Assembly: GCA_002083825.1 (NCBI GenBank)
Contig: DAZV01000036.1
Coordinates: 103,934-167,933, forward strand
Reading direction: 5' to 3'
Length of the DNA stretch: 64,000 nucleotides
Source of the DNA: Candidatus Sericytochromatia bacterium S15B-MN24 CBMW_12
GTDB taxonomy: Bacteria > Cyanobacteriota > Sericytochromatia > S15B-MN24 > UBA4093
This document shows, one piece after another, positions 7,471-59,240 of this stretch. The notes beneath the pieces were generated by a model. The model worked only from the letters and a program-made list of their open reading frames with translations. It was not told the origin of the DNA and made no database searches. Position 1 is the stretch's first letter. Every line of letters begins with the position of its first letter. Made by a program: the position numbers and the translations under genes.

Positions 7471-9255
7471 TTGAACGAGAATATCCGAAACGTCGCCATC
7501 ATCGCCCACGTCGATCATGGCAAAACCACCCTGGTAGACGGCCTGCTGCGGCAGTCGGGCGTCTTCCGTGCCAACGAAGTCATGATCGAGTGCGTCATGG
7601 ACTCCGGGGACATCGAGCGCGAGCGGGGCATCACCATCCTCGCCAAGAACACCGCCGTCGCGTACAACGGCCACAAGATCAACATCGTCGACACCCCCGG
7701 CCACGCCGACTTCGGCGGGGAGGTCGAACGCGTCCTCGGGATGGTCGACGGCTGCCTGCTCATCGTCGACGCCTTCGACGGCCCGATGCCGCAGACCCGC
7801 TTCGTCCTCCGCAAGGCGCTCGAAAAAGGCCTCAAGCCGATCGTCGTCATCAACAAGATCGACCGCCCCGGCGCCCGCCCCGAGGAAGTCGTCGACCTCG
7901 TACTCGACCTCTTCATCGACCTCGGCGCCGACGACTCGCAGATCGAGTTCCCGGTTATCTATGCTTCGGGCATCTCGGGCTTCGCCAAGGACAACCTCGA
8001 AGACGAATCGATCGATCTTCGCCCCCTCTTCGACGCCATCCTCCAGCATGTCCCGGCGCCGCTGGGTGATTCCACCAAGCCCCTGCAGCTTCAGGTCACC
8101 ACCCTGGACTACTCGGAGTATCTGGGTCGCATCGTAATCGGTCGCATCCATAACGGCACCATCCGGGCCAATGAACCCTGCGTGCTGATTCGGACCGACG
8201 GCAGCATCACCAAGGGCAAGATTGCGAAGCTCTTCACCTTCAGCGGCCTGAAGCGGATCGAGGTCGAGGAGGCTCTGGCCGGCGACCTCGTCGCGGTCGC
8301 CGGATTCCCGGATGCCAACATCGGCGAGACCCTCGCCAGCGCAGCCGACCCCAATCCCCTGCCGCTCATCCGCGTCGACGAGCCCACGCTGCAGATGACC
8401 TTCTCGGTCAACGACAGCCCCTTCGCCGGCCGTGAAGGCAAGTACGTCACCAGCCGCCAGATCCGTCAGCGGCTCATGCGTGAACTCGAAAGCAACGTCT
8501 CGCTGCGCGTCGACGACACCGACACCACGGATGCCTTCCTCGTGAGCGGTCGCGGCGAGCTTCACCTCGGCATCCTCGTCGAGACCATGCGCCGGGAAGG
8601 CTACGAGTTCCAGATCTCCAAGCCCAAGGTCATCTTCCGCGAGGTGAACGGCAAGACCTACGAGCCGTTCGAGATGCTGGTGGTGGACGTCCCCGATTGG
8701 GCCGCCGGTACCTGCATCGAGCGTCTGGGTCAGCGTCGTTCGGAAATGCAGAAGATGGATGCCACCGGTGTGCGCACCGTTCTCGAGTTCCTGATGCCTT
8801 CCCGGGGACTGATCGGGTTCCGGAGCGAATTCATCCGCGCCACCAAGGGCGAGGGGATCATGACCCACTCCTTCTTCGATTATCAGCCGCACGTCGGCGA
8901 GATCGGCAACCTGCGAAACGGTGTGTTGATCGCCCACGAGGACGGAGATTCCACGGCCTACGCCATCCAGAACCTGGAAGACCGGGGAATGTTCTTCATC
9001 GCGCCCGGCGTCAAGGTCTATGCCGGCATGATCGTGGGCGAGCATAACCGCTCTCAGGACATCGTGATCAACGTCTGCCGCACGAAGAAGCTCACCAACA
9101 TGCGGGCAGCGGGAGGCGAGGAGCTGGTTCGGCTCACCCCTCCGGTGGACATGAACCTCGAGCGCGCCATGGAGTACATCAACGAGGATGAACTCGTCGA
9201 GATCACTCCGCAATCGGTGCGTCTGCGCAAGCAGAAGCTCACCGGCCTGAAGTAA
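7471..9255 (+). CDS. typA: translational GTPase TypA/BipA
   Basis: Starts [26 protein letters not shown], with DTPGHADF and NKID G-motifs; 594 aa. TTG start at 7471 is preceded by GAGGAGAG. Confidence 0.95.
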
Positions 9256-27317: not shown

Positions 27318-27872
27318 CTAGATGCGGTCGATTTCGCGGCCCACGAGGGCCAGATGCGACTGGTTGACGATGCATTCGGTGTAGCAGTCGCAGCCGCAGC
27401 GTTGGCAGAGGGTGGCAATCAGGCCCCGATCTCCCATAAAGGCGGCGCTGACGAAGCTCCTCAGGCCGCGGTGCATGGCCTTGGTATCGTCCGGACTCAT
27501 CTTGGCCAGGATGCTCTCGAGGCGATCGCGCCGTTCCTTGCGCACGCGTTCGAGCATGGCGAGGCCCGGCTCGGTGACGGTGAGCTCGGACTGGCGGCGA
27601 TCGCGGGCATTTTCCTGGCGGGTGACGAGCTCCTTGGCCACCAGGCGGTCAACCGCCTTGGTGGCTGCTGGGTAACTGATCCCCAGTCCGTCCGCGAGGT
27701 CCCCCACGTAGTTGGGGGTGTGCCTCGCCAGGAAGAGCAGGGCCTGAACCTGGGCGGGCGTGATGTCCAGGTCCTCGAGTTCCTTCAGGGGCTCGTTGCA
27801 GAGGACCTTTCCGAAGAGATCCACGAAAAGTTCGAAGAGGGTCTCCGTGTCGCGCAGGAGCAGGTCCTTCAT
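27318..27872 (-). CDS. MarR-family transcriptional regulator with Cys-rich C-terminal tail
   Basis: Winged-helix core (ITPAQVQALLFLARHTPNYVGDLADGLGISYPAATKAVDRLVAKELV) plus a C-terminal CQRCGCDCYTEC cluster. Confidence 0.8.
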   Translation of the reverse strand: MKDLLLRDTETLFELFVDLFGKVLCNEPLKELEDLDITPAQVQALLFLARHTPNYVGDLADGLGISYPAATKAVDRLVAKELVTRQENARDRRQSELTVTEPGLAMLERVRKERRDRLESILAKMSPDDTKAMHRGLRSFVSAAFMGDRGLIATLCQRCGCDCYTECIVNQSHLALVGREIDRI

Positions 27873-27875
27873 GAC

Positions 27876-28952
27876 CTACCTCAGGACCGGCAGCTCGATC
27901 CGCTTGATCGAATTGACCGAGATCTTGGCGGCGATGTTCTGGGCGATCCGGCGGAAGGCCTCGGCTTGAGTGGACTGGGGCTCGGCCGCGAAGACCGGTT
28001 CGCCCGTGTCGCCACCGGAACGGATCTTCGGGTCCAGGGGAATGTCGCCGAGGTAGGGGACATCGGTGTAGGTGCTGGTCTTCTCGCCGCCGCCGTGGTC
28101 GAAGATGGCGGTGGATTCGTTGCAATGCGGGCAGACGAAGGCGCTCATGTTCTCGATCAGGCCGAGGATGGGCACGTTGACCTGCTTGAACATGTTCAGG
28201 GTCTTGATGCCGATCTGGGCGGCCACGGGCTGCGGGGTGATGACGATGACCGCGCCGGAGAGCGGGAGCAACTGGGTGAGGCTCAGGGGAACGTCGCCGG
28301 TGCCGGGCGGCAGGTCGACCAGCAAGTAGTCGATCTCTCCCCATTCCACGTCGCGAACGAACTGCTGGAGCACTCCGGTGAGCATGGGACCGCGCCAGAT
28401 GACGGGATCGTCGCCGTTGGGCAGCATGAAGCCGATGGACATCATCTTGACGCCATGGCGCTCGACGGGGATGATCCGGCCGTCGCGGGTGCCGGGGCGG
28501 GTCTTGGCTCCCATCATCAGGGGGATGGAAGGGCCGTAGATGTCGGCATCGAGCAGGCCCACCTTGGCGCCCGACTCGGCGAGGGCGAGGGCGAGGTTGA
28601 CCGCGACGGTCGACTTGCCGACGCCGCCCTTGCCGGATCCGACGGCGATCACGTGCTTGATGCCGGCGGGCCGGTTGGCGTTGAGGGCCGCGGAGGTGGC
28701 GACGTTGGATCCGAAGGTGACGGTGACCTCGGTGACGCCGGGAATCGCCTTGACGGCGGCGCTGGCCTCGTTGCGAATCTGATCCTTGAGAGGGCAGGCG
28801 GGGGTCGTCAGAACGACCTTGAAGGAAACATGACCGCCCTCGACCTTCACGTCCTGGATCATTCCCAGGGTGACCAGGTCCCGGTGGATCTCGGGATCGT
28901 TGACGGTCGACAGCGCTTTGATGACATCATCGTTCGTGGGCATGGTGGACAT
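27876..28952 (-). CDS. Mrp/NBP35/ApbC-family Fe-S cluster carrier ATPase
   Basis: N-terminal DUF59-like VIKALSTVNDPEIHRDLVTLGMI, deviant Walker A GKGGVGKST, and CPHC. ATG 28952 after GAGGAG. Confidence 0.9.
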   Translation of the reverse strand: MSTMPTNDDVIKALSTVNDPEIHRDLVTLGMIQDVKVEGGHVSFKVVLTTPACPLKDQIRNEASAAVKAIPGVTEVTVTFGSNVATSAALNANRPAGIKHVIAVGSGKGGVGKSTVAVNLALALAESGAKVGLLDADIYGPSIPLMMGAKTRPGTRDGRIIPVERHGVKMMSIGFMLPNGDDPVIWRGPMLTGVLQQFVRDVEWGEIDYLLVDLPPGTGDVPLSLTQLLPLSGAVIVITPQPVAAQIGIKTLNMFKQVNVPILGLIENMSAFVCPHCNESTAIFDHGGGEKTSTYTDVPYLGDIPLDPKIRSGGDTGEPVFAAEPQSTQAEAFRRIAQNIAAKISVNSIKRIELPVLR

Positions 28953-29003: not shown

Positions 29004-29033
29004 AATCTTAACGCGGTTAACCAAAAACGACAA
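29004..29033 (-). promoter_or_regulatory. putative mrp-marR promoter (TTGTCG-18-TAAGAT) with a GGTTAACC palindrome in the spacer
   Basis: On the minus strand, TTGTCG lies at 29033-29028 and TAAGAT at 29009-29004. The palindrome GGTTAACC (29015-29022) sits between them, the classic repressor-operator position. Confidence 0.35.
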
Positions 29034-31784: not shown

Positions 31785-32549
31785 TTGCTCAAGCTCCTCC
31801 GGATACTCTTGGTTACCAGCCTTACGGCCTTCGGCGCCTTCATCGTGCTGCCGCTACCATTCGTGGTCTGGGGCCACGTCGCGCTGCCGGGAGCCTCTGA
31901 AATCGCCTCCTGGAAAGGCCTATCGGCGGGATTGTTCCATCCTTCGGCCCAACTGCTGGGAGTATGGCTTGCTGGATGCTGGCTGGGTACGCGAGCAGGC
32001 GTTTTCAGCATGGTGCTTTACCTCGCATTGGGAGCCTTCGGCCTGCCCGTCTTCATCGACGGCGGCGGAATCGATTACGGTCAGCACGGCGCGGTGATCC
32101 CGCTCCTCGCATTTCCCGCGGCCGCCTGGATAATCGCCCGCATCCGCGGGCTGGGGAGCGCCAGGCGAACCTTCTGGGGCCTGCTTTCCGCAACCACCAT
32201 GATTTCCCTGGGAGCCGTCCTCAATCGCATGGCGGGAACCGGAAACTGGACTGACGGACGACAGTGGCTCAGCTTCGCCATCCCGCAGAGCCAGGCGCTA
32301 TTCGGCTGGCTCGCCATGATGGTCCTGTTCTCGGCCTTGGCGTCCCTGGCGACCCGGGTTCATCGTGCCTGGTACCCGCCTGCGCCGCCCACCATGCCGG
32401 CGATCGAAACCGAAGAGGACGCCGAGGAACTCCCCCCGCTGGCGCTTCCGTCGGGACGGCCGCGCGACCAGCGCGCCCTGCCGCCGTCGCTCGCGCCCGA
32501 TGCCAAGCAACTGCCGGCACCACCCCATCCGCGCCATCCCGATCGATAA
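31785..32549 (+). CDS. BioY-like membrane protein with Pro-rich C-terminal extension
   Basis: QLLGVWLAGCWLGTRAGVFSMVLYLALGAFGLPVF resembles the BioY core. TTG start after AGGAA. The C-terminal ~70 aa are Pro/Ala-rich. Confidence 0.5.
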   Translation: MLKLLRILLVTSLTAFGAFIVLPLPFVVWGHVALPGASEIASWKGLSAGLFHPSAQLLGVWLAGCWLGTRAGVFSMVLYLALGAFGLPVFIDGGGIDYGQHGAVIPLLAFPAAAWIIARIRGLGSARRTFWGLLSATTMISLGAVLNRMAGTGNWTDGRQWLSFAIPQSQALFGWLAMMVLFSALASLATRVHRAWYPPAPPTMPAIETEEDAEELPPLALPSGRPRDQRALPPSLAPDAKQLPAPPHPRHPDR

Positions 32550-41823: not shown

Positions 41824-42001
41824 CCCGTCCTCCTTCTGGAACAACCAAAACGTGTTAATCGTGTTAACCGGGTTATCGAGGACGGGGAGCGGAATACGGT
41901 AAAGGTGAAGCTAACATGATTTTAAGGTGAGTTTAAAGTTGGCGACCGATTTTCAGTCCAAACCGTGATTCGGGGAAAGAGGGGGTTCGGTGAAAAAGGG
42001 G

Positions 42002-44380: not shown

Positions 44381-44586
44381 GGACGGATCGGCAGGCGCAG
44401 CCTGGGCCGCTGCCGAAAGGTGGCGTACCGCGTCGGAGAACCGACCGTCTTTGTAGGCGCGTTGACCCTCGCTGATGTTCAGGACTCGGCCCTCCTCTGT
44501 CGGTATTATGCCCTGAGGACGTACTTTCCGGCACGCGGGCGGGGTAGAATGTCCAGGATGAAGACGAAACCCGAGCGGGTTACTTG

Positions 44587-44617
44587 ATTAACCAGGGCAA
44601 TCATTAACCTGGTTAAT
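44587..44617 (+). promoter_or_regulatory. candidate operator upstream of czcD: ATTAACCAGG + 15-bp palindrome ATTAACCtGGTTAAT
   Basis: Read directly. TTAACCAGG (44588-44596) is the inverted repeat of CCTGGTTAA (44608-44616). The site lies in the divergent intergenic region 70 nt upstream of the czcD ATG. Confidence 0.4.
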
Positions 44618-44687
44618 ATTGTTCCTAGTTGTTGTTTTTTCTTCATCACCGCGATTGACAGCCGATACTAGAAAGAGGACCTCGACG

Positions 44688-45650
44688 ATGGCAGGGGCCC
44701 CCATCCATAACCACGACCACGAGTCTCCTCAGTCCCATGGTCATCATGACCATTCCCATCATGACCACTCCCATCTCCATCATCGGGAGGGTTCCAAGAA
44801 GGCCCTGCTGGTCGTCTTGGTGCTCACGAGCCTCTACATGGTCACCGAGGGTATCGGTGGCTGGATGACGAACAGCTTGGCCCTGCTGGCGGATGCGGGC
44901 CACATGTTCACTGACGCGGGCGCTCTGGGGTTGAGCTTCGCGGCGATTTGGTTCGCGTCGCGTCCGCCGACGCCCGCGAAGTCCTTCGGCTACTATCGCT
45001 TCGAGATTCTGGCCACGCTGATCAATGGCGCTTCGCTGATCGTGGTGGCGGGGGGCATCTTCCTGGAAGCGTTCAAGCGCCTCGGATCCGCGCCGGAAGT
45101 CGACAGCGTCCCGATGCTCTTCATCGCGGCTGGAGGCCTCTGCGTCAACCTGCTAGGCGCCTACATTCTCTCGCGAGCCGATCATGACAGCATCAACGTC
45201 CAGGGAGCCCTCGCTCACGTCATTGGCGACGCACTGGGATCCGTGGCGGCCATCGTGGCGGGCTTGCTCATGTGGCGTTTCGGCTGGTATCTCGCCGATC
45301 CGATCGTCTCGGCTCTGGTCGGCGTGCTGATCCTGAAATCAGCCTGGGGACTGGTGACCATGTCGGTCGACATTCTCTTGCAAGCGACTCCGCTTCACAT
45401 CGACCCGCAGAAGGTTTCGGCCGTCATCCTCGACGTACCCGGCGTGATATCCGTGCATGACCTGCACATCTGGACCGTGACCTCCGGCATGTTCTCCATG
45501 ACCTGCCACGTGGTCGTGGAGGATCTCGAGGCCAGTCAGGCCGTGCTCTGTCGCATGCGCGACGGCATGCGCGAGGCGTTCAGAATCGATCATGCGACCA
45601 TCCAGGTCGAGACCGCCGACCTCGAGGCTTGCCACCGCCTCGACTGGTAG
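44688..45650 (+). CDS. czcD: cation diffusion facilitator (CzcD/ZitB-type Zn/Co/Cd efflux) with His-rich N-terminus
   Basis: His-rich N-terminus MAGAPIHNHDHESPQSHGHHDHSHHDHSHLHH, then CDF TM motifs (LLADAGHMFTD, LAHVIGD) and a C-terminal cytoplasmic domain. Confidence 0.88.
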   Translation: MAGAPIHNHDHESPQSHGHHDHSHHDHSHLHHREGSKKALLVVLVLTSLYMVTEGIGGWMTNSLALLADAGHMFTDAGALGLSFAAIWFASRPPTPAKSFGYYRFEILATLINGASLIVVAGGIFLEAFKRLGSAPEVDSVPMLFIAAGGLCVNLLGAYILSRADHDSINVQGALAHVIGDALGSVAAIVAGLLMWRFGWYLADPIVSALVGVLILKSAWGLVTMSVDILLQATPLHIDPQKVSAVILDVPGVISVHDLHIWTVTSGMFSMTCHVVVEDLEASQAVLCRMRDGMREAFRIDHATIQVETADLEACHRLDW

Positions 45651-49672: not shown

Positions 49673-49814
49673 GCCGCGCCTTCTCCGCCAGGTTGCGGCC
49701 AGCGCGTCAGGCGAGCTGCTGCGGCTCCCAGGGGTGGGTCTCTCGGAGATGGGCATGGTGAAAGTAGCCTTTCGAGAGGGTGCATGTCACGCGGACGGGA
49801 AACGTCTCGATTAC

Positions 49815-49855
49815 GGAGCGAGGGAAGAGCATGGCTCTTCCCTCGCTCCGTTTCT
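49815..49855 (+). terminator. rho-independent terminator downstream of the dnaE-lipoprotein unit
   Basis: GGAGCGAGGGAAGAGC-atg-GCTCTTCCCTCGCTCC is a 16-bp perfect stem followed by GTTTCT, 143 nt after the stop at 49672. Confidence 0.6.
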
Positions 49856-49929
49856 CCGGGGGCAGGCGGGTGGCGTGGGGCCTGGTGAACATAACCTATA
49901 TTATCGGACGCAAGAGAGGCGCCGGGCCG

Positions 49930-50043
49930 TGGGTGGGGATTTTGGCTGAAAGCCGGTGATGGTGAGGGTTTTGGGGGTTTGAAAGGGTTGGCTGGCTGGA
50001 GGGATGGGTTCGGGGAGGTTGGTCGCTCGGGGTGGGTTTGGGT
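49930..50043 (+). repeat. G-tract / GT-skewed low-complexity block
   Basis: At least 10 runs of GGG or longer in about 115 nt, with very few C on the plus strand (gggtgggg...gagggttttgggggtttgaaaggg...ggagggatggg...cgggg...cggggtgggtttggg). Confidence 0.7.
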
Positions 50044-50184
50044 TTGCGGTGTTATGTAATACCGGGGCTGGCATGGCGAGAGGAGCGCCCGCACGGGCAT
50101 GCCCATGAACGGCGGCTACAGGGCATCTCCGGGAATCGGGCGCTGTAATCCGCGTGGATAGGGGCTTTCAGGGGATTGTTGTTA

Positions 50185-50193
50185 TGTTATAAG
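50185..50193 (+). promoter_or_regulatory. extended -10 element TGtTATAAG immediately upstream of the first 26-nt repeat
   Basis: aTGtTATAAG at 50184-50193, with CTTTCA 17 nt upstream. A transcript would begin at about 50199, roughly 180 nt upstream of the 50377 ATG. Confidence 0.3.
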
Positions 50194-50197
50194 GAAC

Positions 50198-50223
50198 GCC
50201 ATGGCTTCGCCGGCGAACACCCC
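50198..50223 (+). repeat. 26-nt direct repeat, copy 1 (GCCATGGCTTCGCCGGCGAACACCCC)
   Basis: Identical 26-mer to 50268-50293. It is built from two 8-nt palindromes (GCCATGGC, CGCCGGCG) plus AACACCCC. Confidence 0.85.
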
Positions 50224-50267
50224 CCGTAGCCCCCCATCGAGGGGGGCAAGTTAACGGTAGATTAGAG

Positions 50268-50293
50268 GCCATGGCTTCGCCGGCGAACACCCC
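50268..50293 (+). repeat. 26-nt direct repeat, copy 2
   Basis: Identical to 50198-50223, with a 70-nt period. Confidence 0.85.
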
Positions 50294-50376
50294 TACCTCT
50301 CGGGGGAGCTGGACAAATTCTTTACCTTACCTTAAACTAGATCAATAACAGCGGGTGCTGCAACAGCGAGGTTGCG

Positions 50377-50754
50377 ATGAAGCGGATGCAATTTTTGGCG
50401 AGCGTGGTGATCCTGGCGATCTCCGCTTGCGGAACCCCCACGGTCACCCTGCCGGGCAAGGCCCCGGTCATTCAGTCCATGAGTGTCGAGAGCGGGGACG
50501 TTCGCGTCGGCGCCGGCATCAAGCTGATGGCTCAGGCGACCGCGGATTCAAAAGCCCTGAGCTACGCCTGGTCATCGAGCGGCGGCATGATCACCATGCC
50601 GAAGCAGGCCAAGTCCATCTGGCTGGCCCCCACGTCTGTCCCCTACACCCCGTATCCCGTGACCATCGTCCTGACCGTCACCGACGCGCACGGGCGAACC
50701 GACAAGCAAAGCGCTCAGGTCTTGGTCCGAAACCAGGGACTGGCCACTCTCTAG
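50377..50754 (+). CDS. small lipoprotein with PKD/Ig-like beta-sandwich domain
   Basis: Starts MKRMQFLASVVILAISACG (lipobox) and contains ...YAWSSSGG...VTIVLTVTDAHGRTD..., a PKD-like pattern. Confidence 0.6.
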   Translation: MKRMQFLASVVILAISACGTPTVTLPGKAPVIQSMSVESGDVRVGAGIKLMAQATADSKALSYAWSSSGGMITMPKQAKSIWLAPTSVPYTPYPVTIVLTVTDAHGRTDKQSAQVLVRNQGLATL

Positions 50755-50876
50755 CTGAGCCTTGCAGGCGGCCAAGGGTTGCCTAGGAGCACTCGTCGCG
50801 ACGGCCCGATACGGCCGCGGAGTTTTGCGATCCTCGCGGAAGCCGCCGACAACTCCCATGAACAGCTCAACAGCGA

Positions 50877-51133
50877 TTAACCAGGCTAACAATTAACCGC
50901 ATGAACAGTTCGCATGGTTAATCAGTCGCGCGCTTGATCACAGGTCAACCACGGCAATATATAACCTGCTTAACCAATAACCTTGTTAACAGGTATCCTG
51001 GTTAATTAATTAACCAGCTAACCAACGATCTGTTCGGCGAGCGACTTGCTGATTGAGCCACCTGTGAAGCCTGACTAACAGTTAATCTGGTTCATAGTTA
51101 ATTGAGTTAACCATTAACCAAGCTAATTGTTAG
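50877..51133. repeat. AT-rich array of TTAACC/GGTTAA boxes
   Basis: Perfect hexamers start at 50877, 50893, 50970, 51010, 51107 and 51114 (TTAACC) and at 50916 and 51000 (GGTTAA). One-mismatch variants include CTAAC, ATAACC, GTCAACC and GTTAAT. By hand count, 50941-51120 is about 41% G+C. Confidence 0.85.
50998..51017. repeat. 20-bp perfect palindrome CTGGTTAATTAATTAACCAG
   Basis: Read directly. It is the reverse complement of itself and forms the core of the TTAACC array. Confidence 0.9.
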
Positions 51134-51160
51134 TTAGGCTTCGCAACATGCGATCGATCC

Positions 51161-51526
51161 TCATCCGACGACGACGTCCTCCGCCGCTACCGAGAGGGTT
51201 CCGAACTCCTCGGTTCTCACCTTCACGACGATCCGATGCGCCCCTGGCTCCACGTGGGTGTCCTCGACGATCACCGTGACCAATGCTCCCTTGCCGAAGG
51301 CGATGGGGGCCGCTTCGCATACCGACGTCGCAGCGCGCGTGATGCCCGCCTGGGCGAACGCCAGTTCATGGGCTACATAAGTCCTGCCGTCCAGTTCGAC
51401 CTCGTGTACCTCGACGATCCTCGCCGGCATCACGGAATTGTAGAGCGCAAACTTGACGCCTTCCATGCCGTTTTCCAGGCTACCCATCCGATAGAACTGC
51501 TTGAGCATGAACGCTGGCAATTTCAT
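51161..51526 (-). CDS. hypothetical 121-aa protein (no recognisable family)
   Basis: GC3-rich ORF with a protein-like beta-rich sequence (MKLPAFMLKQFYRMGSLENG...). It is divergent from the GNAT operon. Confidence 0.55.
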   Translation of the reverse strand: MKLPAFMLKQFYRMGSLENGMEGVKFALYNSVMPARIVEVHEVELDGRTYVAHELAFAQAGITRAATSVCEAAPIAFGKGALVTVIVEDTHVEPGAHRIVVKVRTEEFGTLSVAAEDVVVG

Positions 51527-51704
51527 TTTGAACCCGTCCTCCTCGCATGACCGTCAACACGTCGTTCTACCTTCTTACAACCCATCGTTCGGCAAGGCAA
51601 GCCCTTGGTATTCCCGCGATCAATTGGGGTAGAATGAACCAAGACAGCGCGTTCCCTCGCGGCGCATCTCCGTGACTGCGGCCCCTAGCCAAAGGAAATC
51701 ACTC

Positions 51705-52880
51705 ATGAGTGGTCTTCTCCGTTCGATACAACTACCGGACGGCCGAGTCCTCGAACTGCGGCGTGCCGGACCCGACGATTCGGACCGCATCGTCGCCCTC
51801 TACGATCATATTTATCAAGGGTCTTACACCCTCGACATCGTCAACGAGCCTGCCGATCGCCTTCAGGCCCTAAAGGATGCCAACCACTACTGGCTCATCG
51901 TCGACGACGGCGAAGCCATCGTCGGCTCCGTCATCCTCGAACTCAATCCCGATCAGCGCCACGGCAAGGTCTTCGCCGCCGTCATGCGAGACGATTTCCG
52001 CCGCTACGACGTCATGAGCCGCCTCATCGGCATGGGCATCCAGAAGCTCATGTACGACGACCGCCTTTGCGACGCCATCTACGCCACCACCCGAACCGCC
52101 AGCATCGGACCCCGCCAGCTGATGAAGAAGCTCGGCTTCGTCAGCCTCGGCATCTTCCCCAACGTCCACCGCCTCGCCGAGTACGAAACCCACGGCCTCA
52201 GCGCCCTCTTCCACTCCGATGCATGGCAGAAGCGCCGCCGTCTTCCCAAGCTCATCCCTGAGGTCGAAGGCTTCTACCGCGTCATCCGGCAGACCTTCCA
52301 CCTGGAACCCGCCGAGATCATGCCCGCCAAGCACCAGCCCAAGCTCAAGATGATCCGCGGCGAGGCCGTCGGCCAAGAGCTCGAGCAAGAACGCAAATCC
52401 GGCGCTCTTCTCATGGACTTCTTTCCCTTCCACAAGGCCAACTTCCTCTTCGCCAACGACGACCGCAGCGTCAGCGCCTTCGTCAACTACGAGGGCAAGG
52501 ACGGCTACGGCACCCTCGTCGCCCTCAAGGCCCCCATCGAGGACCTTCGAGGCGTCCTCGAAGCGGTCTTCGAGATGGGACAGCGCATCGGGATCGTCTA
52601 CATGGAAATCCTCGTCGACGCCTACGAACCCCGCATGCAACGCGCGGCCCTCGCGGCCCAATTCCTGCCCTGCGCGTATTTCCCCAGCATGCAGCAGACC
52701 GATGACGACCGGAAGGACTTCCTTGTCTTCGCCCGCTCCATGCTGCCCCTCAACTTCTCCAACGTGCAGATGACCCCACGCGATCGCCAGTTCCTCGACC
52801 ACTACCTCCAGAACACCGAGTTCCGGAACCTGGTCGTCAAGATGCACTTCACCGGCCCCCTCGACGAGGGACGCCCGTGA
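51705..52880 (+). CDS. two-lobed GNAT-like acyltransferase
   Basis: N-terminal GNAT pattern (ELRRAGPDDSDRIVALY...WLIVDDGEAIVGSVILE...KLGFVSLGIF) plus a second GNAT-like half. ATG 51705 follows AAGGA. GTG 51672 is the ORF-track start. Confidence 0.7.
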   Translation: MSGLLRSIQLPDGRVLELRRAGPDDSDRIVALYDHIYQGSYTLDIVNEPADRLQALKDANHYWLIVDDGEAIVGSVILELNPDQRHGKVFAAVMRDDFRRYDVMSRLIGMGIQKLMYDDRLCDAIYATTRTASIGPRQLMKKLGFVSLGIFPNVHRLAEYETHGLSALFHSDAWQKRRRLPKLIPEVEGFYRVIRQTFHLEPAEIMPAKHQPKLKMIRGEAVGQELEQERKSGALLMDFFPFHKANFLFANDDRSVSAFVNYEGKDGYGTLVALKAPIEDLRGVLEAVFEMGQRIGIVYMEILVDAYEPRMQRAALAAQFLPCAYFPSMQQTDDDRKDFLVFARSMLPLNFSNVQMTPRDRQFLDHYLQNTEFRNLVVKMHFTGPLDEGRP

Positions 52881-54202
52881 ACGCCAACATAGAGGGCGAT
52901 CGCGCGGACCTGCTCGCCGCTCCCGAAATCGAAGCCCTTTCCCGCCTGAAGCTGCGCACCCTGCTCGAGATTGCCCGCGCGCGCTCCCCCTTCTACCGCG
53001 ATCGTCTCCAGGACCTTCCCCTTCACGACCCCGACGTCCTCTCCGCCATTCCCGTCCTGACCCAGGAAGACCTCGTGGCCAACAGCCCCCCCGAGAGCGA
53101 AGCCCTGCTCACCGGCCCCCTGACCGCGGCCTATCTCTTCCGAAGCGGCGGAACCACCGGCGCCCCCAAGTTCTCACCCTTCGCCGTCACCGAATTCCAG
53201 CGCTGGATCGCCATCTTCCAGCGCACCTACGGCGCAGCGGGCCTGGTCGCCAGCGATCGCGTCGCCAACCTCTTCGTCAGCGGCAGCCTCTATGCCTCCT
53301 TCATCTTCATCAACCGGATGATCGAGGAGATGGGCTGCCTCAACCTCCCCTTCACCTCCGCGGCTCCCCCCGACACCGTCAGTAGCCAGCTGGAGCGCTT
53401 CGACGTCAACGTGCTCATGGGCATCCCGTCCTGGCTGCTGGAAGTCGTCTCCGAACTCTCCCCCCTCGCCGCCAGCCGCGTCACCAAGGTCTTCTACGGC
53501 GGAGAGAACCTCTACCCCGAGGAACGCGAATGGCTCCATGAACGCCTTCCCAACCTCGACATCATCGCCTCGGGCGGCTACGCAGCCGTCGACTCCGGCA
53601 TGATAGGCTTCCAGTGCCAGGCGGCCCCCGCCTCGGTTCATCACGTCCACGCCGACCATGTCATCCTCGAACTCGTCGATCCCGAGACCCTGCAGCCCGT
53701 CGCCCCGGGCGAGGTCGGACTCATCCTGGTCACCACCCTCGATCGCCACCTGATGCCCCTCATCCGCTACCGCATCGGCGACGTCGGCCGCTGGGTTCCC
53801 GGAGACTGCCCATGCGGCCGAAGCATGCCCCGATTCGAGCTGCTCGGACGCGGGGACGACACCCTCCGCATCGGCATCGCCACCGTGGGCATCGACGAGA
53901 TCCTCCCCGCCATCGCCCAGATCCCCGGGCTCTCGACCCACGCCCAGATCGTCAAGGAGCGAATCGCGCGCAAGGACCAGCTGACCGTGCGCGTCGAGCG
54001 CCTCCCCGCCACTGAACTGCCCCCCGAGGCGCTTTCGGACGCCCTCGGCAAGCTGATCCGGCTCCAGAAGCCCGACCTCGCCAAGCTCGAGGCCAGCGGC
54101 TACGTCCATCCGCTGCGCATCGAGGTCCTGGAGCCCCGCTGCATCGGGCGCGTCACGGTGACCGGAAAGATTCGCCGCGTGGTCGATAGGTCCCGGGAGT
54201 AA
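52877..54202 (+). CDS. PaaK / coenzyme-F390-synthetase-type adenylate-forming enzyme
   Basis: P-loop FRSGGTTGAPK, then CPCGRSMPRFELLGRGDD (the PaaK-family C-terminal hinge region). GTGA overlap with the upstream gene. Confidence 0.85.
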   Translation: MNANIEGDRADLLAAPEIEALSRLKLRTLLEIARARSPFYRDRLQDLPLHDPDVLSAIPVLTQEDLVANSPPESEALLTGPLTAAYLFRSGGTTGAPKFSPFAVTEFQRWIAIFQRTYGAAGLVASDRVANLFVSGSLYASFIFINRMIEEMGCLNLPFTSAAPPDTVSSQLERFDVNVLMGIPSWLLEVVSELSPLAASRVTKVFYGGENLYPEEREWLHERLPNLDIIASGGYAAVDSGMIGFQCQAAPASVHHVHADHVILELVDPETLQPVAPGEVGLILVTTLDRHLMPLIRYRIGDVGRWVPGDCPCGRSMPRFELLGRGDDTLRIGIATVGIDEILPAIAQIPGLSTHAQIVKERIARKDQLTVRVERLPATELPPEALSDALGKLIRLQKPDLAKLEASGYVHPLRIEVLEPRCIGRVTVTGKIRRVVDRSRE

Positions 54203-54207
54203 CGCGC

Positions 54208-55326
54208 ATGTCCGCCATCGATCGCCTGGTAGAAATCGACGAACTCTACGACCTCACGCCCGCGCATGACGAGGCCTTCCTCGCGGCCATGCGCCAAGCC
54301 AGCTCCTGGCATGTCGAGCGCTCCCCCGTCTTTCGGAACCTTTCCCGCAAACACGGATTCAGACCCGACGATCTGCGGCGCATCTCGGACGTCTCGCGCT
54401 TGCCCTACGTCTTCGTGAACGCCTTCAAGCAGTACGAGATCCTCTCCGTCCCGCGCGAGGATATCGTTTTGACCCTCACCTCGTCCGGGACTTCCGGCCA
54501 GAAGAGCCAGATCATGTTCGACGCGCCGTCGCTCGACCGCGGCCTGCGCATGGTCGAGCGCGTTTTTGAAAGCATGGATCTCAAGCGCCCGGAGCAACTC
54601 GTCAACTACATCCTCTTCGCCTACGATCCCGAGGAAGCCCGCATGGTCGGCACGTCCTACACCGACGACAACCTGACCAACCTGACCCGCAAGGGCAAGC
54701 TCTACCATGCCCTCCGCTGGAACCCCGACAAGCTCGAGTTCGAGTTCCGCCCCGCCGAGTGCTATGCCAAGCTCCTCGAGTATGCCGCGGAAGGGCTGCC
54801 GGTTCGATTGCTCGGATTTCCCGCCTTCCTGCATCGGCTGGTCCGCTTCCACCAGGAATCCGGCGCCCCGCCGCTCGACCTCGGCCAGGACTCCTACGTC
54901 CTCACCGGCGGCGGCTGGAAGACCTCCGAGCAATCCGCCATCGACAAGGACTCCTTCATCGCCGACGTCTCCCGGACCCTCGGCATTCCCCCGGGAAACC
55001 TCCGAGACGGTTACGGTCTGGTCGAACATGGGATCGCCTACATCGAATGCGAGCATCATCGCTTCCACGTTCCCGCCTTCGCGCGCGCCTTCGCCCGCGA
55101 CGTCGCCACCCTCGACCTCCTGCCCGAGGGTGAGACCGGCTTTCTCCAGCTCGTCACCCCCTACATGCAATCCATGCCGACCCTCTCCCTCCTCACCAGC
55201 GATCTCGCCGAGGTGGGCGGAAACTGCCCGTGTGGCCGAAAGTCCGGAACCATCATGCTGCGAGGGCGTGCCGGAACCCGCAAGAACAAGGGTTGCGCCA
55301 TCACGGCCGCGCAGCTCTTGAAGTAG
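54208..55326 (+). CDS. LuxE-type acyl-protein synthetase
   Basis: Contains LTSSGTSGQKS, TGGGWK and CPCGRKSGTIMLRGR. Size (372 aa) and motif order match the LuxE family. Confidence 0.85.
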   Translation: MSAIDRLVEIDELYDLTPAHDEAFLAAMRQASSWHVERSPVFRNLSRKHGFRPDDLRRISDVSRLPYVFVNAFKQYEILSVPREDIVLTLTSSGTSGQKSQIMFDAPSLDRGLRMVERVFESMDLKRPEQLVNYILFAYDPEEARMVGTSYTDDNLTNLTRKGKLYHALRWNPDKLEFEFRPAECYAKLLEYAAEGLPVRLLGFPAFLHRLVRFHQESGAPPLDLGQDSYVLTGGGWKTSEQSAIDKDSFIADVSRTLGIPPGNLRDGYGLVEHGIAYIECEHHRFHVPAFARAFARDVATLDLLPEGETGFLQLVTPYMQSMPTLSLLTSDLAEVGGNCPCGRKSGTIMLRGRAGTRKNKGCAITAAQLLK

Positions 55327-55336
55327 GAGACCTCCC

Positions 55337-57979
55337 ATGCACTACCTCTTCGGCCGCTCCTTCGAGGGCCGGATCGACGATTCCCAGGCGCGGACGATTC
55401 TCTCCGAGGCCCGCTCGCGCCGCGCGGCGTTTCGGCGGGTCCCGCTGGAAACCATCGTCAGCGTTCTCGAACGCGCGGGGCGCCGATGGTCCGATCCGCA
55501 AGATCCCCTTTACAAGCAGATTCTGGCCGAAGCTCCCGCCCAGATAGGCTTCAGTCGCCCCATGGTCGAAGCGGAGCTAAGAAGCGTCGCCCTGGCCCTG
55601 AGTCGCCCCTACCTCGTCCCCAAGATCGCCAGGGAACTTGGAAGCCCCGGTGTCCTGGACGGCTGGACCGGCGGCTTCGCTCAGCCCTTCACCCGGGCGA
55701 TGCCCCGCGGAGTGGTCTTGCACGTCGCGAGCGGAAACGTGCTCAGCGCCGGAGCCCTCAGCATGGTGGAGGGAATGCTCACCAAGAATATCAACCTCCT
55801 CAAGGCCGCGAGCCGCGCCACGCTCTTCCCCTCGGCCTTCGCCCGGTCCATCCGGGAAGTCGACGAGGAGGGACTCGTCGCCGAATCCTTCGCCGTGCTA
55901 TCGTGGCCCGGATCCGGCAGCCAGGTCCACCGCATCTTCCAGCAAGACTGCGATGCCATCGTGGTCTGGGGTGGCGAGGACGTCGTCAGGACCTACCGGG
56001 AGGGTCTCGGACTCAAGTGCAAGCTCATCGAGTACGGCCCCAAGGTCAGCTTCGGGGCGATCGCCTCCGAGCGCCTCGACCACCCCGATACCGCCAGGGA
56101 TGCCGCCCTGGCCGTGGCCCTCTGGGATCAAAGCGCATGCTCCAGCCCCCAGGTCCTCTACGTCGAGGATGCCGGCCCCGACCACCAGGCCACCCTCGCC
56201 TTCGTCGATAGGCTCGCCTCCGCCCTCGCCGACGTTCAGCAAACGCTGCCCCAGGGGCCACTGGACCTTCAGGAGCGCGCCGAACTCACCAAAGAGCGGC
56301 TGGTCGCCGAGGTCACGGAAGCCCTGGATCGCGGCGTCCTGCGAACCCCGGGGCGCGAACCCGACTGGACCGTCATCGCGGAGTGGGATCCCGAGTTCAA
56401 GCTCTCGCCCCTCTTTCGCACGATCTTCGTCAAGCCGGTCGCCGACCTCGCGTCCGTCCCCGAACTCGTCGCGCCCTATGCCGACTATCTTCAAACCGCG
56501 GGCATCGCCGCCGCCCCCGAACGCGTGAGCCTCCTCGCCGAAAGCCTCTTCGACATGGGCTTGCTGAGGGTCACGACCCTCGCGGGCATGTCCGGTGGCG
56601 AACCCGGCGAACCTCATGATGGGGGCTACGCCCTGCATGCGCTCGTCAAGTGGGTCACCATGGGCTTCCGGGAAGAAACCGAGCGGTATGATGCCGCCGA
56701 GTGGCATTCCCCCGAAACGACCGAGGGCCTGACCTTCGCCAAGCTGAAGCACCTGCTCGAGGACGTCGCCCCCCAGGCCCCCCTCTACCGCGAGCGCCTC
56801 GCAGGCCTGCAATTACGCTCCATGGCCGACTGGACGGGGGTTCCCACCCTGAGCAAGGACGACCTTCGCGCGGGCACTCCCCCCCGCAGCGAGGACCTCT
56901 TCACCGGGGATCCCCTAGGAGCCCACTTCCTGCGGAGCGGCGGCTCGACCGGCGAACCGGCCCTCTCGGCCTTCGCCTACCCCGATTACGAGGCCGACAT
57001 GGCCCGCGCCGCCCGCGGTCTCTTCGCGCTGGGCCTGAGACCCGGAGACCGCGTCGCCAACCTCTTCATGGCGGGACACCTCTACGGCTCCTTCCTTTCC
57101 ATCAACCGCGCCCTCGAACTCGTCGGCTGCAACAGCTTCCCCTTCACCAGCGCCACCCCCGCCAAGGAGCTGCCGGCCTTGCTGAGGGCCTACGGCATCG
57201 AGGTCCTCGCGGGCCTGCCGTCCTGGCTCATGGAGGTCTTCGACGCCATTCGCCAGGATCCCATCGGCGTCACCATCCGCAAGGTCTTCTACACCGGTGA
57301 GCACTTCTACCCCCAAGACCGCGAGCGTCTCGCCCGCGAGTTCGGCATCCTGCAATTCGGAAGCCTCGGCTACGGCACCGTCGACGCGGGCCCCATCGGC
57401 TACCAGTGCGCCGAAAGCCACGGCGGCGTCCATCACCTCCACTCCGATCATCAGTTCATCGAGATCGTCGACTCCGAATCCCTCCAGGCCGTCCCCGCGG
57501 GAGAGCCCGGCGAACTGCTGATCACCAACCTCAACCGCCGGCTCATGCCGGTCGTTCGCTACCGGATTGGCGATCGCGCCCGCTGGATCCCCGAAAGCTG
57601 CCCTTGCGGCCGAAGCACCCCCCGCTTCGAACTTCTCGGACGCTGCGACGACATGATGGTCCTCGGCGGGATCAACCTCACCTACGCCGAACTGCACGAG
57701 GCCGCCCTCGCCGTCGACGGCGTGAACGCTCCGCTGCAACTCGTTCTCTCCCGCGCGGAGAATCGCGACCGCCTCACCCTGCGCATCGAGGCCTCCGAAC
57801 CGCGCCTCGCCGACGCCCTGGCCGAAGGCCTCCTCGCCCGCGTCGACATGCTCCGCCGGATCATCGACCGCGGCCAGCTGAACCCGCTCGCCGTCGAGGT
57901 CCTCCCGCCCGGCGGCATCGAGCGCTTGCCGCGAACGGGCAAGATCCGAAACGTGATCGACCGGAGAAACGATGCCTGA
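55337..57979 (+). CDS. fusion protein: LuxC-type acyl-CoA reductase (N) + PaaK/F390-synthetase-type adenylase (C)
   Basis: N-terminal part: HVASGNVLSAGALSMVEGMLTKNINLLKAAS and WDQSACSSPQVLYVE (LuxC catalytic Cys context). C-terminal part (from about aa 440): LRSGGSTGEP, CPCGRSTPRFELLGRCDDMMV, paralogous to 52877..54202. Confidence 0.85.
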   Translation: MHYLFGRSFEGRIDDSQARTILSEARSRRAAFRRVPLETIVSVLERAGRRWSDPQDPLYKQILAEAPAQIGFSRPMVEAELRSVALALSRPYLVPKIARELGSPGVLDGWTGGFAQPFTRAMPRGVVLHVASGNVLSAGALSMVEGMLTKNINLLKAASRATLFPSAFARSIREVDEEGLVAESFAVLSWPGSGSQVHRIFQQDCDAIVVWGGEDVVRTYREGLGLKCKLIEYGPKVSFGAIASERLDHPDTARDAALAVALWDQSACSSPQVLYVEDAGPDHQATLAFVDRLASALADVQQTLPQGPLDLQERAELTKERLVAEVTEALDRGVLRTPGREPDWTVIAEWDPEFKLSPLFRTIFVKPVADLASVPELVAPYADYLQTAGIAAAPERVSLLAESLFDMGLLRVTTLAGMSGGEPGEPHDGGYALHALVKWVTMGFREETERYDAAEWHSPETTEGLTFAKLKHLLEDVAPQAPLYRERLAGLQLRSMADWTGVPTLSKDDLRAGTPPRSEDLFTGDPLGAHFLRSGGSTGEPALSAFAYPDYEADMARAARGLFALGLRPGDRVANLFMAGHLYGSFLSINRALELVGCNSFPFTSATPAKELPALLRAYGIEVLAGLPSWLMEVFDAIRQDPIGVTIRKVFYTGEHFYPQDRERLAREFGILQFGSLGYGTVDAGPIGYQCAESHGGVHHLHSDHQFIEIVDSESLQAVPAGEPGELLITNLNRRLMPVVRYRIGDRARWIPESCPCGRSTPRFELLGRCDDMMVLGGINLTYAELHEAALAVDGVNAPLQLVLSRAENRDRLTLRIEASEPRLADALAEGLLARVDMLRRIIDRGQLNPLAVEVLPPGGIERLPRTGKIRNVIDRRNDA

Positions 57980-59240
57980 AACGCGCACCCTGGGAACCCG
58001 CCGCCGTCATCCGACGCTCGGGCGCAACCGGGACTTCCTCCTCCTCTGGTCCGGACAAGGCGTCTCCCAGATAGGCACCAAGGTCCTTCAACTCGCCCTC
58101 GTCTGGTGGGCCCTCGAAAACGGCGGCAGCCTGGCCGCCGTGAGCGGCGCGCTGGTGGCGACCTCCCTGCCCTTCGTGATCGTCGGCCTCTTCGCGGGAC
58201 TGCTCGCGGACAAGTTCGACCGCCGCACCCTGATGATCGCCTGCGAAGCCGGAAACGGCTTTTTCGTCGCCGCTCTCGCCTACCTGGCGTTCACCGACCA
58301 GCTCACCCTCCCCCTCCTGATGGCCGGCACCGCCCTGGTCTCCACCCTGGGCGCCGTCTTCAGCCCCGCGGCCATGGCGGCCATTCCCGACCTCGTCGAT
58401 GAACCCGACCTGCTCCGCGCCAACTCGCTGCAGGAAATGACGGCCCAGGGTGCCCTCGTCTTCGGCCCCGCCCTGGGCGGCGCCCTGCTCGCCACCATCG
58501 GAGCCCCCGCGGCCTTTCTCGCCACCGCCATCACCTACGGGCTGAGCAGCCTCTGCATGCTGGCGTTCCGCCTGGAACGCCGCGCCAGCGCTCCGAACGC
58601 CTCGGAAGCCCCCGCCGCCCCCCACCTCCTGCAGGAACTCGTCGGCGGCTTCGCCGTCCTCAGGGAAAACCGCACCATCGCAACCCTGCTCGGCCTCTTC
58701 GCCGTCGCGAACTTCCTGCTCGTTCCCATCACCGTGTTTCTACCGTACTACGCCAAGGAGGTCTTCGCGGTGGGCGCCGGCGGCCTCGGCATGCTCGAAG
58801 GCAGCATCGGCGTCGGCATGATCGTCGGAGCCGTCGCCCTCATCCGAAAAGGCGACGTCAAGAGGCGCCGCCGTGCCATCCAATGCGGCCTCGCGATTCC
58901 GGGCCTGGCGCTGGTCGGGATGGGCCTATGGGCCTATTTCCCCGGGTTTCTCGTGGCTCTCTTCATCCTGGGAGCCGCCTTGTCGGTCATGAATGTCGTC
59001 TCGATGACCTACTTCCAGGAAAACGTACCTCCCGAACGGCTCGGACGCTTCATGGGCCTCTTGATGACGATCATCATGGCCCTGATGCCCCTTTCCTACG
59101 CCGCGGCCGGACTCGCGACGCTCGGAATCCCCGCAGGAAGCCTCATGACGGCTGCGGGGGCGCTGCTCCTGCTGCTGGGACTCGGCTTGCCCCTGCTGGG
59201 ATCGTTGAAACCACTGGCGATCGGAGAGAAACATGGTTGA
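57972..59240 (+). CDS. MFS transporter
   Basis: About 12 TM segments, N-terminal RNRDFLLLWSGQGVSQIG and GLLADKFDRR (MFS loop 2-3 motif). Overlaps both neighbours by 8 nt. Confidence 0.85.
   Translation: MPETRTLGTRRRHPTLGRNRDFLLLWSGQGVSQIGTKVLQLALVWWALENGGSLAAVSGALVATSLPFVIVGLFAGLLADKFDRRTLMIACEAGNGFFVAALAYLAFTDQLTLPLLMAGTALVSTLGAVFSPAAMAAIPDLVDEPDLLRANSLQEMTAQGALVFGPALGGALLATIGAPAAFLATAITYGLSSLCMLAFRLERRASAPNASEAPAAPHLLQELVGGFAVLRENRTIATLLGLFAVANFLLVPITVFLPYYAKEVFAVGAGGLGMLEGSIGVGMIVGAVALIRKGDVKRRRRAIQCGLAIPGLALVGMGLWAYFPGFLVALFILGAALSVMNVVSMTYFQENVPPERLGRFMGLLMTIIMALMPLSYAAAGLATLGIPAGSLMTAAGALLLLLGLGLPLLGSLKPLAIGEKHG

Follow-up and report, generated by a model that had tools for sequence, protein, structure and literature searches.

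In the MarR family, an operator placed over the -10 hexamer of the regulator gene's own operon is the usual layout for self-repression, and the family member SlyA recognizes the consensus TTAGCAAGCTAA. The closest described systems are those of AdcR and ZitR, the MarR-family zinc repressors of streptococci and lactococci, which bind TTAACYRGTTAA palindromes overlapping the -35 and -10 hexamers (PMC6372160). This work deals with a comparable palindrome, TTAAC-N3-GTTAA, in a stretch of 64,000 nucleotides (the window) of contig DAZV01000036.1 from Candidatus Sericytochromatia bacterium S15B-MN24 CBMW_12, and with the AT-rich island between two convergent genes in which it is clustered. We propose, giving this about an even chance of being right, that the island may serve as a multi-site binding platform for one dimeric protein recognizing TTAAC-N3-GTTAA, most probably a MarR-family regulator with a cysteine-containing C-terminal tail (Cys-tailed MarR) encoded in the same window. 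The palindrome occurs at four loci:

50855-51140, no strand: AT-rich island with 8 exact and 16 one-mismatch TTAACC/GGTTAA boxes, and four near-perfect TTAAC-N3-GTTAA palindromes (50877, 50977, 51098 and 51114).
44587-44617, no strand: second box cluster, ATTAACCAGG-n6-ATTAACCTGGTTAAT, with a perfect TTAAC-N3-GTTAA, 71-101 bp upstream of the start codon of a CDF cation-efflux gene.
41855-41876: two overlapping near-perfect palindromes, TTAATCGTGTTAA (41855) and TTAACCGGGTTAT (41864), 30-55 bp before the start (~41823) of a lipoprotein gene (CarboxypepD_reg) on the minus strand.
29008-29020, no strand: perfect palindrome TTAACGCGGTTAA in the mrp/apbC-marR promoter, between the minus-strand -35 TTGTCG (29033-29028) and -10 TAAGAT (29010-29005) and overlapping the -10.

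An initial annotation of the window had singled out the island for its low G+C content, its eight exact hexamers and at least six one-mismatch variants, and a recount agrees with it on all three. The hexamers start at 50877, 50893, 50916, 50970, 51000, 51010, 51107 and 51114, the variants number 16, and the G+C content is 0.427 for 50855-51140 and 0.411 for 50941-51120, compared with 0.639 for the window, of which the island is the largest AT-rich stretch. Because 5000 dinucleotide-preserving shuffles of the island itself contain on average 0.23 such hexamers and four at most, this enrichment over the local background is not a by-product of AT-richness; indeed, no hexamer of whatever kind reached eight copies in the island in 2000 shuffles. 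With at most one mismatch allowed, TTAAC-N3-GTTAA has eight matches in the window against 0.08 expected, and four in the island alone against 0.02 in local shuffles. All eight are intergenic, at four AT-rich places (the island with four, the region upstream of the CDF gene with one, that upstream of the lipoprotein gene with two and the mrp-marR promoter with one); the copies at 29008 and 44604 are perfect and the other six carry a single mismatch. The longer word ATTAACCAGG, exact or with one mismatch, is confined to the island and 44587-44617, besides one one-mismatch copy at 32125-32134. Judged by their sequence, the TTAACC/GGTTAA boxes are thus half-sites of a 13-bp palindrome, TTAAC-N3-GTTAA.

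The mrp-marR copy of this palindrome lies in front of the following minus-strand genes:

27876-28952, minus strand: mrp/apbC, Fe-S cluster carrier, first gene of the operon.
27318-27872, minus strand: MarR-family regulator of 184 amino acids (aa) with a conserved C-terminal C-x2-C-G-x-D-C-x3-C tail, the candidate binder of the boxes.

In the relative locus L271, whose MarR is 65% identical to that of the window, the promoter reads TTGCCG-17-TAAACT and holds TTAACTGCGTTAA in the same slot; in L274-276 (MarR 58% identical), it reads TTGTCG-17-TAAAAT and holds GTAACCGGGTTAA. An operator slot between a -35 TTGyCG and a -10 TAArnT is therefore kept in three lineages in which the remaining spacer bases differ. 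The palindrome is the sole match in each 20-kb relative locus, and no other kind of match was found over 127 kb of loci from beyond the close clade. Two more MarR loci gave no information: L288 breaks off within mrp, and L289 has its MarR gene after a WYL gene and lacks the palindrome. By this comparison, the mrp-marR palindrome is the phylogenetic footprint of an operator. It lies in the regulator's own promoter and is conserved with the regulator, as expected of a generic autoregulated MarR operator, and the winged-helix segment SYPAATKAVDRL of MarR is invariant in all close homologues, just as the operator is. Since an operator copy at its own promoter is kept in two distant Sericytochromatia lineages that have no island, the Cys-tailed MarR is the probable binder of the boxes.

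The core of this regulator is predicted to adopt a MarR-like fold (predicted local distance difference test, pLDDT, 80-92), with S. aureus MarR, YusO, MepR and Rv1404 as best PDB matches. Its tail reads C-x2-C-G-x2-H-x3-C in more distant full-length relatives, and it likely holds a metal or a cluster. The full tail motif of the subfamily is C-x2-C-G-x2-[C/H]-x3-C-[IV]-[VL]-N-Q-[AS]-H; no solved structure or named family covering this tail was found. The subfamily comprises 339 cluster representatives at E<=1e-10, many of them aligned full-length, and in Sericytochromatia its members are always encoded directly after mrp/apbC.

How far does this system resemble AdcR and ZitR? The window copies have the same 5-bp inverted half-sites, TTAAC and GTTAA, and the window target set includes a zinc-type CDF transporter. 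A MarR-family dimer (here presumed) would likewise bind sites over promoter hexamers, of which there are one or two per promoter (PMC6372160). In the window, this overlap varies by site: it is seen at the mrp-marR -10 in three lineages, there is none at the island, and at the CDF gene the copy comes after a putative -10. There are differences as well. The spacer is 3 bp in all window copies instead of the 2-bp YR, and a C-terminal Cys4 tail stands in place of the AdcR zinc sites. The genes regulated by AdcR are for uptake and the window target is an exporter, and AdcR regulons are not known to contain a ~280-bp cluster between gene ends. Moreover, the window MarR scores 29.4 bits against the cut-off of 175 of NF038251, and ZitR comes only 50th in the fold search. 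The window protein is not an AdcR orthologue, and the comparison thus describes a mode of action, not an identity.

In the same vein, SlyA and RovA are MarR-family proteins with multiple degenerate palindromic sites, and the setting is alike in that an AT-rich island lies in a GC-richer genome. GCTAA half-site variants are found at 50877 (TTAACCAGGCTAA), at 51114 (TTAACCAAGCTAA) and in the relative locus L085 (TTAGCTGGGCTAA). However, SlyA sites lie upstream of the genes that are de-repressed and act against H-NS, while the window island is not upstream of a gene, and we know of no H-NS-like silencer in the Sericytochromatia lineage. The cyanobacterial Pho box, PyTTAAPyPy with an 11-bp phasing, was considered as well and rejected, the box spacings being 16, 9 and 7 bp and never 11.

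The second box cluster belongs to a longer structure in front of its gene:

44557-44647, plus strand: imperfect hairpin of ~91 nt enclosing the CDF boxes, downstream of a putative -10 TAGAAT (44545-44550).
44688-45650, plus strand: ZitB-like gene for CDF cation efflux; the N-terminus of its product is His-rich.

Because it is downstream of the putative -10, the CDF box cluster, with its hairpin, is probably in a transcribed leader. This -10 is part of GGGTAGAATG, that is, TAGAAT with a G-rich 5' extension, which is found at 44541-44551 before the CDF gene, at ~20700 before the CDF gene of L087, and in the GNAT promoters of the window (51627-51637, with a TTGGTA partner 18 bp upstream) and of L085 (4694-4704). 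This appears to be the usual form of a strong promoter in the lineage. In comparison with L087, the CDF copy may correspond to a ~90-bp insertion between the GGGTAGAATG -10 and the start codon; the alignment is weak, the two TPR-CDF spacers being too diverged to align and to delimit the insertion.

The island itself is framed by two small genes:

50377-50754, plus strand: 125-aa lipoprotein gene, left convergent flank, with promoter TGGACA-17-TAAACT at 50310-50338, conserved in relatives.
51161-51526, minus strand: 121-aa gene with an HMG-CoA_red_N-like domain (PF25653), right convergent flank.

Their stop codons (TAG at 50752-50754, plus strand; TGA at 51163-51161, minus strand) place the island between two convergent gene ends, as the initial annotation had it. 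Close relatives with the same flanking genes, L083/L084 and L085 (GNAT 85-88% identical to that of the window), retain at this junction an island that is AT-rich and rich in boxes, and their flanking small proteins are only ~50% identical to those of the window. Neither outcome that the initial annotation had named as refuting, a lack of local enrichment or an absence from such relatives, was observed. An extra di-haem MauG/MbnH/CCP-like gene stands between the lipoprotein gene and the island in L083 (976-1941) and L085 (3275-4273); the window has none, and tblastn found no ccp/MauG remnant in its GC-rich 50755-50855. The 121-aa gene is lost in L085, where the island sits in the intergenic region that precedes the GNAT-LuxE-LuxC operon. 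A homologue search with the 121-aa protein returned only itself, and a DnaE-based scan of genome contigs gave nearest relatives that are 60-68% identical, without synteny or boxes.

The islands of the relatives cannot be aligned end to end, whereas the promoters of neighbouring spacers align. Individual sites are nevertheless orthologous: window 50971 (TAACCAATAACCT) corresponds to L085 4264, window 50877 (TTAACCAGGCTA) to L083 1986, and AATCATTAACCTGG is common to the window CDF leader, L083 and L085. When each island was compared by BLAST with all clade loci, only cores of at most 25 nt were shared, and no copies were found in the window beyond the CDF region. Binding sites whose flanks are free to vary would be expected to share nothing but such short cores.

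In the relatives, these cores are centred in long perfect inverted repeats, of 43 nt (2015-2057) and 53 nt (2082-2134) in L083 and of 67 nt in L085. Between L083 and L084, 8 of 150 positions differ, two at palindrome centres, three in spacers and three in arms. Of the arm changes, two form a mirrored pair (2101 G>A and 2115 C>T) and the third (2087) repairs a mismatch, so that none breaks the symmetry. The arms must therefore pair at some stage, as RNA or DNA hairpins, or be homogenized by template switching. Template-switch correction of quasi-palindromes is a known mutational process, and it would also explain the outward growth of a palindromic protein site with arbitrary flanks.

Symmetric arm changes have also been reported for REPINs, and clusters between convergent genes are typical of bacterial interspersed mosaic elements (BIMEs). 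They bring in another explanation, which we hold to be unlikely: the island would be a pile-up of small non-autonomous palindromic repeats, of the repetitive extragenic palindromic (REP)/REPIN or foldback miniature inverted-repeat transposable element (MITE) kind, and its likeness to a MarR operator would be incidental or carried along. Indeed, hairpins 43-91 nt long, whose arms are perfect or nearly so, are found in the window (51063-51145 and 44557-44647), L083 (43 and 53 nt), L085 (67 nt) and L215 (67 nt); like REPs, they are short hairpin-forming palindromes clustered between convergent genes. The family is restricted to a narrow clade, being absent at 65% GNAT identity, the CDF copy, in a weak alignment with L087, looks like an insertion of ~90 bp, and the L215 hairpin lies in an unrelated context, beside a weak terminase-small-subunit/helix-turn-helix (HTH) open reading frame (ORF). 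However, no consensus above 25 nt is shared, and it is the apex that is conserved, whereas REPs and MITEs conserve arms or ends. Hairpin ends differ between copies, and the sequence contains no GTAG-type head, no common terminal inverted repeats, no target-site duplication and no full-length consensus. No transposase, integrase or REP-associated tyrosine transposase (RAYT) gene is found within the 64-kb window, and the density is low, with two clusters in 64 kb and one per relative locus. An island kept at the orthologous site in three lineages, between small proteins that have diverged to ~50% identity, would be unusual for selfish repeats; besides, the perfect mrp-marR palindrome is older than the clade. 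The lack of a long shared consensus also weakens the suggestion of the initial annotation that the island is the relic of a mobile-element end.

The binding-platform reading gains further detail from the internal architecture of the island, in which four elements can be distinguished:

50960-51023, 16-bp register: four 15-bp units resembling ATTAACCWGGTTAAT, namely TATAACCTGCTTAAC, AATAACCTTGTTAAC, GGTATCCTGGTTAAT and ATTAACCAGCTAACC.
50998-51017, no strand: 20-bp perfect palindrome, CTGGTTAAT-TA-ATTAACCAG, at the junction of two units, out-of-phase ('everted').
50892-50922, no strand: nested inverted repeat ATTAACC-gcat-GAACaGTTC-gcat-GGTTAAT.
51063-51145, no strand: long imperfect 83-nt hairpin (39-nt arms, 79% complementarity), beginning 16 bp after the minus-strand gene's stop codon.

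The 20-bp palindrome and the nested repeat were already in the initial annotation and are confirmed at these positions; of the mirrored pair that it also described, TAATTGTTAG is at 51124 as claimed and CTAACAATTA is present but starts at 50886 instead of 50887. A 16-bp distance between TTAA cores is found five times in the island (P = 0.0008 for any spacing) and once in the CDF leader, and it is exactly the register that results when the 15-bp unit ATTAACCWGGTTAAT is followed by one base. The out-of-phase palindrome GGTTAAT-N-ATTAACC, seen as the 20-bp palindrome, arises because two neighbouring units of the register join there. Tandem Repeats Finder (TRF) detected no tandem repeat in the island. 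As a side observation, the 3-bp spacer of the clade-specific copies (44587-44617, 50876-50885 and 50997-51018 in the window; L083, L085 and L215) is always CWG within CCWGG, the Dcm/EcoRII-type site, whereas the ancient mrp-marR operators have GCG, TGC or CGG instead. The hairpin at 51063-51145 was also compared with integron attC sites, in which R''/R' boxes (RYYYAAC ... GTTRRRY) close an imperfect hairpin of 57-141 nt and which form arrays with cassette ORFs or an integrase: it ends in GTTAGGC, with a partner GCCTGAC that has one mismatch; the homologous hairpins of L083 and L085 have no such boxes, and the window contains no integrase.

On either strand, the island is predicted to fold far more stably than shuffled sequences (z = -7.6 and -8.8), and so is the L083 island (z = -13.7). 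Together with the position of the island exactly between convergent stop codons, this folding would suit RNA hairpins that terminate or stabilize the converging transcripts, as bidirectional intrinsic terminators or stem-loops of 3' untranslated regions, the TTAAC apex deriving from a duplicated ancestral hairpin. The 43-nt palindrome of L083, with AAAA on one flank and TTTT on the other, has the layout of a two-way intrinsic terminator, a T-rich run follows the L085 hairpin, the arm changes between L083 and L084 are compensatory, and no alternative terminator-like site exists in 50300-51700. We nevertheless regard this function as quite unlikely to account for the island. A scan of 50300-51700 found no site with a G+C-rich stem followed by a T-run; within the window island, the hairpins have AT-rich stems and none has a T-run behind it. 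A shared apex sequence is not needed for termination, and ~280 bp with five or more hairpins far exceeds what it requires. Finally, terminators account neither for the 16-bp register nor for a sequence word shared with promoters, its boxes being present before the lipoprotein gene, in the CDF leader and in the mrp-marR promoter.

The same strong predicted structure could belong to an unannotated small RNA (sRNA) or antisense RNA whose promoter would be controlled by the box-binding protein, like metal-responsive sRNAs. AT-rich islands between convergent genes of GC-rich genomes often hold sRNA genes, and the L085 island shares its intergenic region with the GNAT-LuxE-LuxC operon downstream of it. 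Yet even a relaxed scan gave no convincing sigma-70-like promoter in the island, the single match being a weak TTAACC-18-TATCCT, and no U-tract terminator is present. In Rfam 15, no family reached its gathering score for the island, the L083 island or the CDF leader, and the generic long-hairpin (miRNA-precursor) matches were well below threshold. The islands are also not collinear between relatives, unlike the real promoters nearby, and we consider an RNA gene very unlikely.

Least probable of all, to the point of being hardly credible, is the reading of the island as a replication origin, as an iteron array of plasmid type or as a parS-like centromere. The AT-richness, the many short repeated boxes and the presence of dnaE 1.6 kb away would fit, and centromere- and iteron-like roles were among those listed initially. 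However, the window contains no TTATCCACA-like DnaA box at up to one mismatch and no 16-bp parS palindrome TGTTNCACGTGAAACA at up to three; no dnaA, dnaN, parA or parB gene is nearby, cumulative GC skew has no turning point at the island, and TRF found no tandem array. The boxes are also present in ordinary promoters, and the island is absent at 65% GNAT identity. What stands from the initial proposal of a multi-site protein-binding platform is therefore the platform itself, since copies of its palindrome are found in three promoters or leaders elsewhere in the window, one of them being the phylogenetically conserved operator before the MarR operon, while its centromere, iteron and origin versions are unsupported.

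If the island is such a platform, the recognition unit would be an RTTAAY core, two of which would form TTAAC-N3-GTTAA (extended form ATTAACCWGGTTAAT); units set on a 16-bp register would also create the out-of-phase GGTTAAT-N1-2-ATTAACC. The MarR regulator, encoded 23 kb upstream, would repress its own mrp-marR operon at the -10, and the same protein would act on the leader of the CDF exporter and on the lipoprotein gene. At the island, many adjacent dimers may coat ~280 bp between the two converging transcription units, in which case the coated DNA could be a protein-occupied barrier or a reservoir that holds a sizeable share of the regulator. Template-switch correction of quasi-palindromes would probably have lengthened the sites into long inverted repeats, and these repeats could fold as hairpins in transcripts entering from either side and, with bound protein, stop read-through. 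The motif enrichment, the palindrome common to four loci, the conserved mrp-marR operator, the conserved position of the island and the symmetric arm changes are observed; the binder, the occupancy of the island and its role as barrier, terminator or reservoir are inferred.

Several observations weigh against this proposal. The island is downstream of both neighbours, with no obvious promoter for a repressor to control, and it has little promoter potential of its own. The L083 island is dominated by three perfect everted palindromes (GGTTAAT-N-ATTAACC) and has only one near-match to the promoter-type palindrome; with TTAA cores 7 bp apart in the everted arrangement and 9 bp in the other, one rigid dimer would be unable to bind both alike. 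Palindrome arms of L083 and L084 have changed together, from GGTTAAT/ATTAACC to AGTTAAT/ATTAACT, which points to arm pairing rather than to protein contacts. In L087, L090 and L092, at ~65% GNAT identity, neither an island nor boxes at the CDF gene were found. The choice of MarR as the binder is also guilt by association with its own promoter. On the other hand, L276, which comes from the same metagenome sample as the ~65% GNAT relatives, carries both MarR and operator. Since the operator is present where the island is absent, it must be old, and the box clusters a recent, genus-level expansion.

These features can be combined in a doubtful, more speculative scenario, in which a lineage-specific self-extending palindromic element would have been built around the MarR operator. 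Copied into hairpins that grow by arm-to-arm correction, it would have seeded the CDF leader, the lipoprotein gene, the island and the phage-like contig L215, and the island would be a titrating reservoir.

L215 came from a metagenome scan for CTGGTTAAT-N1-2-ATTAACCAG, which returned 57 stretches, approximately the number expected by chance and mostly unrelated hairpins in AT-rich organisms; it is the only one that belongs to the island family. This 2.2-kb contig (GC 0.64) has a 67-nt box-bearing hairpin with a perfect TTAACCTGGTTAA. At 1973-2149, the hairpin is nested in a second, unrelated inverted repeat, CTGTCCCCACCTGTCCCTACCTATTCC ... GGAATAGGTAGGGACAGGTGGGGACAG, and the sole recognizable ORF is weakly like a phage small terminase or a transposase HTH. 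In scans of viral contigs, the loose pattern gave chance matches among those listed and the long hairpin pattern gave nothing. The viral 17-mer matches were discarded as due to chance or to the array of a eukaryotic virus, L279, which is made up of GTTAATGATTAAC and TGACGTCA. At 8420-8640, this array has a 21-bp period, with GTTAATGATTAAC interleaved with TGACGTCA and ATGCATATGCAT, beside a large glycoprotein-like ORF. GTTAATNATTAAC is the vertebrate HNF1 consensus, so that the match is a coincidence, and the array has the appearance of an enhancer of a eukaryotic virus, with sites of the HNF1, CRE and octamer types; it is a warning that GTTAATNATTAAC palindromes arise independently. Another array, in L225 (5800-6600 of a metagenome contig with 22% GC), consists of long tandem repeats of ~27-30 bp containing GATTAATTAACC; this contig has 49 TTAACC/GGTTAA in 10.7 kb against ~6 expected from its composition and is unrelated to the window lineage.

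Around the island, the gene order is the ZitB-like CDF exporter, dnaE, two small lipoprotein genes, the island, the 121-aa gene (minus strand) and the GNAT operon. The rest of the window consists of ordinary chromosomal housekeeping genes, and no partition or replication-initiation gene was found in its 64 kb. The operon at 51672-59240 encodes a GNAT protein, a PaaK-like AMP-ligase, LuxE, LuxC fused to a second AMP-ligase, and an MFS_3 protein (EntS-type exporter family). It is conserved across Sericytochromatia, with GNAT homologues 33-40% identical in Riflebacteria, Wallbacteria and Erysipelotrichia, and probably serves to make and export an acylated metabolite. Before the 125-aa lipoprotein gene, a gene-free spacer of 700 bp (49673-50376) includes a strongly G-rich part, with a GC skew of up to +0.52 at 49900-50100, and a 26-bp direct repeat GCCATGGCTTCGCCGGCGAACACCCC at ~50200 and ~50270. 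Several blocks of this spacer are kept in L083 and L085, namely CATAACCTATATTATCGGACG, GCGTTATGTAA, CTGAAACCCGC and the promoter CTGGACAA..CTTTACCTTAyCTTAAACTAGA. It has no Rfam match and may hold an unannotated RNA or a regulatory element.

To conclude, this work offers a view of regulation in Sericytochromatia, uncultured non-photosynthetic relatives of cyanobacteria in which, to our knowledge, nothing is known on gene regulation. Operator clusters and MarR palindromes are kinds that are already known. What is new is a concrete operator, TTAAC-N3-GTTAA, with a candidate regulator and a first target set that includes a CDF metal exporter; the link of a widespread and uncharacterized MarR subfamily (C-x2-C-G-x2-[C/H]-x3-C tail) to the Fe-S carrier gene beside it; and a large cluster, distant from any promoter, that grew into long palindromes inside a single genus. 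If the self-extending operator element were real, a metal or Fe-S regulon would have been rewired within a single Sericytochromatia genus, and the island would set the concentration of free regulator. The island is a natural example of a large operator cluster away from any promoter and, if occupied, it would exemplify how site clusters act as barriers or regulator sinks and how palindromic sites expand into long hairpins.

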